Positions 46,672 to 49,533 are shown, numbered from the stretch's first letter. The stretch is DNA of 64,000 bases from a virus (IMGVR_UViG_3300046519_000060:64001-128000), one strand, 5' to 3'. Notes: generated by a model from the sequence alone, not told the origin. Translations and numbers: made by a program.

Positions 46672-46678
46672 CTAAATA
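46672..46678 (+). promoter_or_regulatory. Late promoter for the ART pair
   Basis: CTAAATA immediately after the terminator, upstream of a GGAG RBS and the ATG at 46703. Confidence 0.8.
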
Positions 46679-46702
46679 TTGACATATTCCTCGGAGTGCG
46701 CT

Positions 46703-47512
46703 ATGCAAACCTTCAAGCAATTCCTCAAAGAACAAGAAATCGATCCCAAGAACGGTTGCATTGGCCCCGATGGTGTCCCATGTCTCTATACCAATTGGGA
46801 CCGTGCTATCGGTCCTGATGGCGTCCCCACTGCCCTGATTGACTGGTCCGATGCTCGCGCCCGCAAGCGCCGCGTACAGGAAGGCAAACATGGCGATCAT
46901 ATCGACCACTGGACGGAACATCACGACAACGACCACATCGGCGGATCGGTGCGTGCTGTCCATGAACATCTGGCAGATGCCGACAGTTCTGGTCGTGGTG
47001 ACGTTGAAGCCGTCAGGCACTACACCCGCGATTCGAAGTGGCTGAACGAAGGTCTATACGACGCCCACAAGACCGGCGCAAAGGTTCCCTACGAACTCGG
47101 CGGTCACTCTGTTCTGGCGCTCGATAAGGCCATGAAGAAGAACAAGCTGGCGAAGCCCCTGAACGTCTACAGCGGCGTGCGTGTGAATCCCGGAAAGCTG
47201 GCAGAGCAACACCCAGAAGGCCATCTGCACCTTCCCGCGTTCGTCTCTACGTCCATCGACAAGGACGAAGCCCGCACGTTCGCAGAACACGGCTATGGAA
47301 GCTACGGTAAGGATCAACACATCATCCACTTCCATGTCCCGGCTGGTCATGAAGGGAAGTACGTCGATCATCACAGCGCAAACTCGGGCGAACGTGAATT
47401 CATTCTCCCGCGTGGGACGACATGGAAGATTCACCCGAAGCCGGATAGCTACGAAAACAACGATGGTGAAACACATACCCACATTTGGCACGCACATCCA
47501 ACTAACGTATAA
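46703..47512 (+). CDS. ADP-ribosyltransferase (VIP2/Alt-like fold) with capsid-targeting N-terminus
   Basis: HYT..S..LN..L; LD.A..K; VYSG; FVSTS; EREFILPRG (E-x-E). N-terminus MQTFKQFLKE. Confidence 0.85.
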   Translation: MQTFKQFLKEQEIDPKNGCIGPDGVPCLYTNWDRAIGPDGVPTALIDWSDARARKRRVQEGKHGDHIDHWTEHHDNDHIGGSVRAVHEHLADADSSGRGDVEAVRHYTRDSKWLNEGLYDAHKTGAKVPYELGGHSVLALDKAMKKNKLAKPLNVYSGVRVNPGKLAEQHPEGHLHLPAFVSTSIDKDEARTFAEHGYGSYGKDQHIIHFHVPAGHEGKYVDHHSANSGEREFILPRGTTWKIHPKPDSYENNDGETHTHIWHAHPTNV

Positions 47513-48312
47513 TGAAGTCGTTCAAACAATTCATCTTTGAATCCGTCGATCATGGTGTGGTCGATGGGATTCCTTGTGCCGTCATCTTGAAGCCCGAACA
47601 CCTATCAGAAGAAGTACATCGCATGGCGAAGTGGGCGCTCGATGCTTCGGACAACTCACATCTTGGTGGTACGAAGAAGTCGCAAGGCGATTCGCTTGCA
47701 TGGTCACATCCTATCAGCCCGGATGATCGCAAGCATCTGTACCGCTACACCAAGTCAAGCAACACGCTGAATAGCGATCTGTACCGCCGTCACATGGAGA
47801 ACGATCCGGTCAAGCATCCGGCCACGGTTCCGACCAAGGTCAGCGGTGAACACCATGACGTTGCGGCGCTCGATAAGGCCGTCCATCAGCCGTTGAAGCA
47901 AGACGTACACGTTCATAGCGGCGTGCGCTTCAACCCCGGCAGACTGGCTAGAAATCATCCAGAAGGCCATATCCATCTGCCCGCCTATACGTCTACATCA
48001 CTGGACCGTCAGGTTGCGAACCAGTTCTCGGACTCGGGTCATATCCTGCACATCCATTTGAAGGCTGGCGACAAGGCGCGATACGTTGGTGCTGATTCGC
48101 ACTACCCGCATGAGAAGGAAGTTCTTCTGCCGCGTCACACGACGATCAAGGTTCATCCCGAACCCGATGTTGTTCAAGGTGAAGGTGGAACCAAGGTCCA
48201 CGTCTGGCACGCACATGTTGTCCATCAGGCGCACCCAGATGAAATCAAGCCGCAAGGTAAGGCGAAGAAGGTCAAGCCCCGCTCCCTCGATACCACGGTG
48301 ACAGACGTGTAA
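47512..48312 (+). CDS. ADP-ribosyltransferase (VIP2/Alt-like fold), paralog, with capsid-targeting N-terminus
   Basis: RYT..S..LN..L; LDKAV; VHSG; YTSTS; EKEVLLPRH (E-x-E). N-terminus MKSFKQFIFE. Confidence 0.85.
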   Translation: MKSFKQFIFESVDHGVVDGIPCAVILKPEHLSEEVHRMAKWALDASDNSHLGGTKKSQGDSLAWSHPISPDDRKHLYRYTKSSNTLNSDLYRRHMENDPVKHPATVPTKVSGEHHDVAALDKAVHQPLKQDVHVHSGVRFNPGRLARNHPEGHIHLPAYTSTSLDRQVANQFSDSGHILHIHLKAGDKARYVGADSHYPHEKEVLLPRHTTIKVHPEPDVVQGEGGTKVHVWHAHVVHQAHPDEIKPQGKAKKVKPRSLDTTVTDV

Positions 48313-48317
48313 TAAAT

Positions 48318-48341
48318 AAAGCCCGCAATTGCGGGCTTTTT
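48318..48341. terminator. Bidirectional intrinsic terminator
   Basis: AAA-GCCCGC-aatt-GCGGGC-TTTTT between convergent genes. Confidence 0.85.
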
Positions 48342-48344
48342 CGT

Positions 48345-48569
48345 TTACGACTTCGGTTTCAGTGCGTTGCGTTCATGGTAGGTCATCGGCTTCTTGTTCT
48401 TCCCGCCTCGCGTCTTGGACGGGTGTTCGTGCTGGTGCGAGAACTGATCGATGTAAAGCTGGCGGGCCGCGTCAGACAGGAATACATCGAGTCTACGAGT
48501 CCCGCCACAAACCTTGCACTTCAATTCCGTATCACTGGCGACTTCAACGTGCGATGGATGGTCAAACAT
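48345..48569 (-). CDS. Small hypothetical protein (CxxC...HxH)
   Basis: 74-aa ORF coupled to the ARH gene stop. Confidence 0.65.
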   Translation of the reverse strand: MFDHPSHVEVASDTELKCKVCGGTRRLDVFLSDAARQLYIDQFSHQHEHPSKTRGGKNKKPMTYHERNALKPKS

Positions 48570-49473
48570 GTTCTTCGTTCAGATGGAACAGTTCCTTGAC
48601 GTAGCGGTTTTCGAGTGACGGCTGAATGAACTCAATCCAGTCTGCCGGAAGGTCGCCCAAGCCGAATACAAGGGCTGCAATGCCCCCGACGACGCACGCG
48701 TTGGTGTCGGTATCCCCGCCGTACAGAATCGCCCTGCTGACCGCTTCCGCGTAGCTGTTGCTGTTCTGGATACAGTCCTTGACGATGTTCAACGTGTCGA
48801 TGACGTAACCCGATCCGAAGTCCAGTTGGTACGGGTCAGGCATCCAGTCGAGAATCTTCCCGACCATGCCCCACAGAAGGCCGAAGTCGTTCTTCGTGAA
48901 CGTCTTGCCCGCGTTGTTCTGGTCCGCGATCATGCGGGCGAGCAACACATAGAACTGACAGGACTTCACGCAATCCTGACTGTTGTGCGTGATGATCGAC
49001 TGCTGAAACGCCATGCGGATCATGTCATGACTGTCATCGCAGATGAAGGCCACAGGCAGTACACGCATCAGCGAACCATTGCCAGAAGCGCGTTCTTCGT
49101 GAATGCGGACCTCACCCTTGCGGCGGTAATACGAAAGTTGCGTCGCGGTCTGCATTCCTTCATCGAAAAGCTTCCCGCTGACCCAATACTTGCCCTTCTC
49201 CCATGCGAGAAGGTCAGCATAAAACGCAGTCGCGTCGTGCGTGTCCTTTTCGAAGTTCGCATTGACACAAAGCTGCTGACTGAAATCGTCTGAATAAACA
49301 CCCAACGGAACCCCGTAGGTCTTGTAATCCGTGTCGATCTGGGTCGGATAGTCCACGTAATGCTTGTTGATTGCGTGGTCCTGTTTGAACTCATGCGGGA
49401 CTCCAAGGGCGTCGCCAAGCATTGCGCCAAACATGGCGGTTTGTTTCTGGTCTAGTGTCGAAAAATCGATCAT
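48562..49473 (-). CDS. ADP-ribosylglycohydrolase (ARH/DraG family)
   Basis: GAMLGDALGVP.EF; YSDD; GNGSLMR; ITH; GGDTDTNACVVG.IA. ATG at 49473 with a GGAG RBS. Confidence 0.93.
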   Translation of the reverse strand: MIDFSTLDQKQTAMFGAMLGDALGVPHEFKQDHAINKHYVDYPTQIDTDYKTYGVPLGVYSDDFSQQLCVNANFEKDTHDATAFYADLLAWEKGKYWVSGKLFDEGMQTATQLSYYRRKGEVRIHEERASGNGSLMRVLPVAFICDDSHDMIRMAFQQSIITHNSQDCVKSCQFYVLLARMIADQNNAGKTFTKNDFGLLWGMVGKILDWMPDPYQLDFGSGYVIDTLNIVKDCIQNSNSYAEAVSRAILYGGDTDTNACVVGGIAALVFGLGDLPADWIEFIQPSLENRYVKELFHLNEEHV

Positions 49474-49503
49474 GTTTGTTTCTCCATGACTAAGTATGGG
49501 TAC

Positions 49504-49533
49504 AGCATAACACAAGTACCATACGAATGTCCA
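49504..49533 (-). promoter_or_regulatory. Possible sigma70 promoter for the ARH gene
   Basis: Minus strand TGGACA-N18-TATGCT with an extended -10 TG. Confidence 0.45.

Follow-up and report, generated by a model that had tools for sequence, protein, structure and literature searches.

The sequence analysed in this work is a window of 64,000 nucleotides, corresponding to bases 64001-128000 of a 167,847-bp IMG/VR viral contig (IMGVR_UViG_3300046519_000060) that is estimated to be 92% complete. Our analysis revealed an island in this window with two ADP-ribosyltransferase (ART) genes on the plus strand, ART1 and ART2, and a gene for an ADP-ribosylhydrolase (ARH) that converges on them from the minus strand. 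A first-pass annotation had described a late promoter, the two ARTs, a bidirectional terminator, a 74-aa open reading frame (ORF; aa, amino acids) and the ARH, and all of these were found (Table 1). It had also placed the island between uvsY and uvsW. This position was correct, but one further conserved gene, coding for a 286-aa protein, was found between uvsY and the island.

Table 1. Features of the island and of associated loci (positions counted from the first base of the window).
Feature	Position	Strand	Evidence
ART1, C3/VIP2-fold ADP-ribosyltransferase, 269 aa	46703-47512	+	PF03496, E 5.9e-15
ART2, paralog of ART1, 266 aa	47512-48312	+	PF03496, 1.3e-16; PF01129, 1.2e-5
ART3, ART-PolyVal family, 240 aa, tag MKSFKQFIAE	30664-31386	+	PF18760, 3.4e-16
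ARH, DraG/Tri1-type ADP-ribosylhydrolase, 303 aa, no capsid tag	48562-49473	-	PF03747, E 8e-46
74-aa ORF containing a single CxxC; overlaps the stop of ARH (ATGTTTGA)	48345-48569	-	conserved in relatives
Putative late-promoter core CTAAATA	46672-46678	+	24 nt 5' of the ART1 ATG
Intrinsic terminator closing the upstream gene (45703-46563) and isolating the ART unit	46630-46658	+	12-bp stem, then T-run
Bidirectional intrinsic terminator common to the ART and ARH units	48318-48339	both	9-bp stem with 6 G-C pairs, T-runs on either strand
Candidate sigma70-like promoter of ARH, TGGACA-18-TATGCT with TG extension	49504-49533	-	9/12 matches
Conserved basic 286-aa protein, no capsid tag	45703-46563	+	pI 9.8
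gp21-type prohead protease	41238-41894	+	PF03420, 9e-43
gp22-type scaffold	41929-42927	+	PF25623, 1.4e-61

The phage is an uncultured T4-like one from soil and encodes UvsY, UvsW, gp23, a gp21 protease and a gp22 scaffold. Cyanophages and a pelagiphage were the nearest GenBank phages by UvsW, which shares only ~48% identity with theirs. The island was held by only one public run, a rhizosphere DNA metagenome, and no RNA holder was listed. A megablast search of the island against GenBank phages for a near relative gave no match, tblastn with ART1 gave a single weak match (to a Streptococcus prophage), and single-sequence scans of IMG/VR gave no match. The relatives described below were reached only via protein searches and profiles.

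The PF03496 scores of ART1 and ART2 were 55.6 and 61.0 bits, respectively, against a curated cut-off of 23.4. The two proteins are 36% identical (E 2e-39), and their genes are translationally coupled by a stop/start overlap, TAATG. These results agree with the first-pass annotation, which had read the genes as two coupled paralogous ARTs with STS and E-x-E motifs. The best solved match of ART1 was C3larvin (3e-6). With an AlphaFold2 model of ART2 (pLDDT 83.8), Foldseek placed C3bot, Plx2a, Certhrax, Iota and VIP2 on top (E ~1e-11), and the TM by target was 0.64-0.68 for the best single-domain matches, C3bot and Plx2a. In ART1 the E-x-E takes the form E-R-E and follows an intact STS. The family is large, with 460 clusters at 50% identity (E <= 1e-30). 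Within the family, the first Ser of STS (S161), E201, E203 and P207 are invariant, and T162, S163 and the rest of L-P-R are nearly so, while the mean column identity of the family is only 32%. Since E-x-E is the mark of arginine-modifying enzymes (PMC8120803), the targets of the ARTs are probably arginines of host proteins. By the aromatic phi-position rule for the ARTT loop (PMC7827354), ART2 has an aromatic residue (…S-H-Y-P-H-E-K-E) and ART1 an Asn at this position, which suggests that the two enzymes differ in their targets. Histidine makes up ~10% of ART1 and ART2 and 8% of ART3, compared with a genome mean of 3%. ART1 and ART2 also contain H-x-x-H-x-H and W-H-A-H motifs that are conserved.

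Residues 1-10 of ART1 (MQTFKQFLKE, 46703-46732) and of ART2 (MKSFKQFIFE, 47512-47541) form a capsid-targeting sequence, or tag, of the T4 type. In T4, such a sequence is recognised and removed by machinery of the gp21/gp22 type. In the T4 record, IPIII and IPII start with MKTYQEFIAE and IPI with MKTFKEF. Previous work in T4 has indicated that the ten tag residues suffice to load foreign proteins into the head, and that positions 4 and 7 serve targeting while positions 8 and 10 serve processing by gp21 (PMC9026906). All four mapped positions are kept in ART1, ART2 and a third protein, ART3, as F4, F7, L/I8 and E10; the corresponding residues are Y4, F7, I8 and E10 in IPIII and IPII, and F4 and F7 in IPI. 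We scanned the whole 168-kb genome in six frames with the pattern M-[KQ..]-[ST..]-[FY..]-x-x-[FY..]-[ILVM]-x-[ED]. Only three ORFs matched, and all three were ARTs, from two unrelated Pfam families. N-termini of the MK[ST]FK type were found in 32 out of 32 close family members and in at least 58 out of 104 single-domain representatives.

ART3, whose family is unrelated to that of ART1 and ART2, is located in the neck/terminase late operon, with gp14, gp15 and gp16 as neighbours and a predicted late promoter at 29852. It stands alone, flanked by the gp14 neck gene and by a 254-aa ORF at 29896-30660 that has no Pfam match. No ART3 homolog was found in the related contigs that were fetched.

Genome-wide, 15 of the 27 copies of CTAAATA lie within 60 nt upstream of a gene on the same strand, mostly a structural gene, and the distance to the ATG of structural genes is typically 24-38 nt. 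Among the genes preceded by the motif are those for the scaffold and the tail tube and a giant gene of 2082 aa. Before the neck operon, CTAAATA lies at a greater distance in the same orientation, and gp23 is preceded by ATAAATA instead. In four relatives TAAATATTGACA is invariant before the ART array, and [C/A]TAAATA was found 31-43 nt upstream of the first ART in L009, L007/L016, L017, L023 and L080. Late transcription of the ARTs would fit the motif, which we read as the late-promoter core of this phage, and its conservation. The terminator upstream of this core has a fold energy of -20.7 kcal/mol (z -4.9), and a hairpin with a T-run is present at the equivalent position in relatives. The hairpin between the ART and ARH units gave z values of -4.55 and -4.53 on the two strands, and its sequence is kept in L003, L005 and L012.

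Two other promoter candidates in the ART unit were rejected. The TTGACA right after the late core (46679) was considered as a -35 element, but a matching -10 would cover the ART1 ATG; the other late promoters of the genome likewise continue with (G)TT after the core. As for the sigma70-like hexamers at 47485-47513, considered as an ART2 promoter, the -10 hexamer overlaps the ART2 ATG.

The first-pass annotation had guessed at head loading of the ARTs by analogy with T4 Alt. The tag with its four mapped positions, the putative late-promoter core and the presence of gp21 and gp22 all favour such loading. As the ARTs are the only tagged ORFs and gp21 and gp22 are encoded, head loading and injection are well supported, and we consider it highly probable that the ARTs would be packaged and injected.

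The ARH product matched PF03747 at 157 bits, against a cut-off of 26.2. Its nearest solved sequences were Lmo0067 (8za7, 2e-23), Tri1 (6dre, 1e-20), a Thermus protein and DraG (4e-14), while ARH3 matched only at the C-terminal metal site. The model of the protein (pLDDT 93.6) has an all-helical fold, for which the top Foldseek matches were 6dre, 8za7, 2cwc and DraG (TM 0.62-0.80). The two best of these folds are hydrolase partners in ART toxin/immunity pairs (6dre/6drh and 8za7). Eight residues are invariant in 34 sequences, namely E28, D62, D63, T162, H163, D254, D256 and T257, with the TH motif (PMC9503650) and the D-x-D-T metal site among them; the E-D-D catalytic residues are those listed in PMC8120803. 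By profile and predicted fold, the ARH/DraG-family protein of the first-pass annotation is therefore of the DraG/Tri1 type, with a full set of catalytic and metal-binding residues. As Tri1 and DraG are nearer to it than ARH3 is, it would be expected to act on Arg-ADP-ribose. Its N-terminus, MIDFSTLDQ, is untagged. A predicted complex of ARH with ART2 scored 0.17 against a mark of 0.32, a value that speaks neither for nor against binding. No second ARH, Macro domain, NADAR domain or Alt ortholog was found in the genome, so ART1, ART2, ART3 and ARH make up its whole recognisable ADP-ribose toolkit.

At the candidate ARH promoter, TGGACA and TGnTATG(C/A)T are kept in six relatives with a spacer that varies, and L079 has TTGACT-17-TACAAT at this position. 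No late motif was found on the ARH strand. It is likely that ARH is transcribed by the host polymerase as a non-late gene, and its expression may be early. Further upstream, back-to-back perfect TTGACA-17-TATAAT promoters were seen at 51763-51791 (minus strand) and 51850-51878 (plus strand), which are kept in L003, L005, L006 and L012. There is no ORF behind the leftward one, and the next minus-strand genes are ARH and the 74-aa ORF, 2.3 kb downstream; a simple scan found no minus-strand terminator between this promoter and ARH. It could drive an origin transcript or a non-coding one, or else a long early transcript running antisense to uvsW as far as ARH.

Our searches showed that an ART array of 2-5 genes with a convergent ARH recurs in ~12 related contigs, which were reached from the ART side and from the ARH side. 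In the relatives found from the ARTs, the order is uvsY, a gene for a protein of ~265-285 aa, 2-5 coupled tagged genes, the convergent ARH and uvsW. This order was found in L003/L013 (168.5 kb), L004, L012 (168.4 kb), L005 (176.9 kb), L006 and a 172.5-kb Logan contig. The search from the ARH side gave four further contigs, each with a convergent tagged ART. The tagged ART adjoins ARH in L077 and L078, and in L079 (ARH 38% identical) and L080 (44%) it lies 2.2-2.5 kb from ARH across small early-type genes that are co-oriented with ARH. L009 has a minus-strand cluster of small genes with ARH at its end; within this cluster the ART pair, 6.4 kb from ARH, is the sole unit on the plus strand. The ART-ART-ARH linkage on which the first-pass annotation had built its reading is thus conserved in relatives, also when searched for from the ARH side. 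The background of ARH genes in phages is low (PMC9503650). In another contig, L008 (157 kb), four tagged ARTs are located at 3981-8268 among gp5-like, gp2, tail-tube-like and baseplate genes, and one of the four keeps a canonical Y-R-G. This setting inside the baseplate operon, like the isolated plus-strand ART pair of L009, would fit late expression of the ARTs.

The ARTs of these relatives are 44-50% identical to those of the window, except for ART2 in L003 (77%; dN/dS 0.14), while the corresponding values are 64-73% for ARH, 69-75% for UvsY, 75-83% for UvsW and 87-90% for gp23. In a tree, the ART arrays appeared as mosaics of old paralog types and not as recent duplicates. The tag was present on every array member in the related contigs, including members that are not ARTs. 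In L078, a tagged GNAT acetyltransferase (MKSFLQFVTE) lies in the array at 8072-8443 (minus strand). A tagged protein of 217-225 aa without a known family also sits in the ART arrays of relatives; the member in L003 (4668-5345, plus strand, MKTFSEF…) has no Pfam match, and this family occurs in L003, L006 and L078. The 225-aa protein matched no family and showed no similarity to ART3. With such tagged cargo other than ARTs in the arrays of relatives, the locus is a general tagged-effector array. We also observed giant proteins, the longest of 2,377 aa, in which a single polypeptide holds as many as 10 copies of this ART domain in tandem (HVYSG … TSTS … ExE), such as P0157 at 8001-15134 in a 240-kb T4-like contig (L081) and P0158-P0176. 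In them the array takes the form of a fusion, which the prohead protease may cut.

We propose the following mechanism. The ARTs would be transcribed late from the CTAAATA promoter, taken by their 10-residue N-terminal tag into the scaffolding core of the prohead, and trimmed by the gp21-type protease after Glu10 (L/I-x-E). They would then be injected with the DNA into the next host, where they would ADP-ribosylate their targets ahead of any phage gene expression. ARH would be made in the cytoplasm by the host RNA polymerase and would remain unpackaged, as it has no tag and has a promoter of the sigma70 type rather than a late one. Most likely, it would remove the ADP-ribose attached by the phage's own ARTs, and we lean slightly towards these marks as its substrate. 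The eraser would either end the effect of the injected ARTs after the first minutes, or shield needed host and phage proteins as ART precursors accumulate late in infection. A tagged, injected ART arsenal coupled to a cytoplasmic eraser of its products is the best-supported model, and we hold its chances to be about evenly balanced. A more specific form of it is a programmed, reversible switch within one infection cycle, in which a variable set of capsid-delivered Arg-ARTs would shut host functions on injection, perhaps those of competing phages as well, and the unpackaged hydrolase, made from the incoming genome, would reopen the needed targets. We put this form forward tentatively. If true, it would be a virion-borne effector/immunity system with writer and eraser apart in time and compartment.

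Several observations weigh against this model, and they concern the active site of the ARTs, the ARH gene and its product, and the distribution of ARH. First, the active-site motifs recognised by the first-pass annotation, STS and E-x-E, are present, but the Arg of the R-S-E triad (strand 1), which positions NAD+ (PMC8120803), is replaced by Ser in both ARTs. The beta-1 motif, Y-S-G in ART1, takes the form Y-S-G / H-S-G where C3-type enzymes have Y-R-G. Out of 66 family members scored at this position, 41 had Ser, 19 His, 4 Thr, 1 Ala and only 1 Arg. With the triad Arg missing, the activity or chemistry of the ARTs may differ from that of C3/VIP2, and we therefore call them C3/VIP2-fold ARTs with a non-canonical site. 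Such a family active site, with Ser or His for Arg, is of interest to ART enzymology.

This raises the alternative that the ARTs are not Arg-specific but use another acceptor (a nucleic acid, a small molecule or another residue), or are NADases or non-enzymatic head cargo, and that the substrate of ARH is a different one. The family-wide absence of the canonical Arg is in keeping with it, as are the histidine content and the ARTT-loop aromatic that ART2 has and ART1 lacks. However, a divergent family retains STS, E-x-E and LPR with little or no change, purifying selection acts on ART2, the fold agrees with that of NAD-bound C3 and VIP2, E-x-E marks arginine-modifying enzymes, and the linked eraser comes from the arginine-specific branch. 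We regard this alternative as quite unlikely.

Second, the ARH promoter candidate has only 9 of 12 matching positions, and it is without the ATTCCCAAACCTG-type spacer of the phage's strong early cassettes, one of which is present in the uvsY promoter. Since its -35 hexamer and the uvsW start codon overlap, the conservation of the -35 is partly due to coding. As the site is a modest sigma70-like one, early expression of ARH is a tentative reading. The protein itself aligns to residues 67-362 of Tri1 and has no counterpart of the N-terminal extension by which Tri1 occludes Tre1.

Third, two complete genomes, G001 (145 kb) and G002 (202 kb), carry tagged ART pairs and no ARH, and in G003, G004 and G010 the ARH is located tens of kb from the ART. 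This indicates that ARH is not a necessary antidote. Moreover, the interval between uvsY and uvsW varies, and chance alone could bring accessory genes together there. These facts bear on a second alternative, already raised in the first-pass annotation, that ARH is a counter-defence enzyme which removes ADP-ribose attached by ARTs of the host or of competitors, and lies beside the array only because the interval is an accessory hot spot. Phages are known to carry orphan erasers for counter-defence, such as AdfN against DarTG1 (PMC11825919), and host ART defences such as CmdTAC exist. Many phages have an ARH without an adjacent ART, and the ARH here is on its own strand with its own promoter; the two complete genomes with tagged ARTs and no ARH also fit this explanation. 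However, ART and ARH stay associated where they lie elsewhere than between uvsY and uvsW (L009, L080) and where ARH identity falls to 38-44%, and the closest solved relatives of ARH are immunity partners of cognate ARTs. In addition, known DraG-like enzymes act on protein Arg/Ser (PMC8120803), while known anti-phage ARTs modify DNA or mRNA. Counter-defence therefore seems unlikely to us, though it keeps a minor share of the probability.

The divergence of the arrays is also relevant to a third alternative, phage-versus-phage conflict, where the injected ARTs would knock out functions on which a co-infecting or resident competitor depends, and only phages expressing a matching ARH would proceed, which is the logic of Tre1-Tri1 placed in virions. 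The ARTs evolve faster than ARH and the core genes (69-90% identity), the arrays are patchworks of old paralog types that have been gained and lost, and ARH is closest to immunity proteins of ART toxins. But tagged ARTs occur without ARH in complete genomes, and T4 Alt, the model packaged ART, serves host takeover. We give this alternative little chance.

The proposed system resembles several known ones in part. The ARTs share with the T4 internal proteins the pattern of the 10-residue tag (aromatic at 4 and 7, I/L at 8, E at 10), gp21 and gp22, late expression as predicted for the ARTs, and a variable, fast-evolving cargo behind a constant tag. However, the internal proteins are small and basic, with IPI inhibiting a restriction enzyme, whereas the cargo here consists of predicted enzymes in a coupled array that is linked to an eraser gene. 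That injection of an ADP-ribosyltransferase is within the reach of a phage is known from T4 Alt. Like the ARTs as proposed, Alt is made late, packaged in the head, processed by gp21 and injected, and acts on host proteins at once. The two are not orthologs, as the phrog_802 match spans only ~25-30 residues around E-x-E, and the ARTs are ~270 aa long while the Alt family profile has 674 positions. Alt has a 7-residue propeptide instead of a tag of the internal-protein type, the ARTs have Ser for the triad Arg, and T4 has no linked ARH.

In Tre1-Tri1 of Serratia proteamaculans (6dre/6drh) and the Listeria pair (8za7), a delivered ART effector is likewise combined with a DraG-like hydrolase in the producer. 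In these pairs the genes are in one operon and a secretion system is used, whereas here they are convergent with separate promoter types, and delivery by the phage head is proposed. Furthermore, one phage ARH, which is without the occluding extension of Tri1, would serve 2-5 diverged ARTs. We found no paper on the Listeria pair (Lmo0066). DraT-DraG, which reversibly ADP-ribosylates Arg101 of nitrogenase reductase, is also a writer/eraser system and has the same hydrolase family and catalytic residues, but it is a co-expressed regulatory switch with one cellular target, while here writer and eraser would be apart in time and compartment.

The closest phage precedent is the ART-ARG pair of Aeromonas T4-like phages (Iyer et al. 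2022, PMC9503650; Aeh1 ORF131c/132c, PMC1524935), in which an ART adjoins an ARH and the two were predicted to act on macromolecules. That pair is co-directional and was read as a toxin-antitoxin in an early-type cluster, with no packaging signal or array described. In phiAS5, the gene upstream of ARH has neither a capsid tag nor a Pfam ART match. ART toxins that are MuF-fused or part of polyvalent proteins (PMC9503650, section 3.7.1) are also delivered from the capsid with the DNA, but they are targeted by fusion to a structural domain, and the leader here is short and predicted to be cleavable.

The first-pass annotation knew of no characterised case of the linked arrangement. This calls for some qualification, since the Aeromonas ART-ARG pairs had been noted and Tre1-Tri1 characterised, and packaged ARTs (Alt) and the capsid tag as a loading device (PMC9026906) are also already known. 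New here are the Arg-less active site and the joining of a tagged multi-ART array to a conserved, convergent eraser. If the pairing holds, a reversible ADP-ribosylation programme that a virus imposes on a bacterial host would be seen for the first time. To our knowledge, a phage that combines the writers it injects with an eraser of its own has not been described. The T4 capsid-targeting sequence would then be a general address label for swappable enzymatic cargo, with ARTs of two families here and the GNAT and the Pfam-less family in relatives, and such a label would let injected effectors be predicted from sequence alone.

The other genes of the region were also examined. The 74-aa ORF has homologs at 56% identity by tblastn in L003, L004, L012 and L013 and a further one in L078, with a dN/dS of 0.45; it matched no family in Pfam or the Protein Atlas. 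A different small ORF occupies its position in L006 and L077. The 286-aa protein is found at the same position in L003, L005, L006, L012, L014, L077 and L078 with 35-55% identity. It has a charged, coiled-coil-like middle, and its gene has its own sigma70-like promoter (45625) and terminator. It has no Pfam family, and the Protein Atlas gave nothing solid, only a weak Y4mA_C-like C-terminus. A GIY-YIG homing endonuclease gene is located between gp23 and the tail-tube gene in L003 (758-1615), L005 (1661-2329) and L006 (2498-3265); the window is without it, with gp23 stopping at 44323 and the gene that follows beginning at 44439/44466. Upstream of uvsW, at 49490-49496 (plus strand), a CTAAGTA that differs from the late core in a single base precedes the ATG by 30 nt. 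It is invariant in the window, L003, L005, L006, L077 and L078, and may be a weak late promoter for uvsW.

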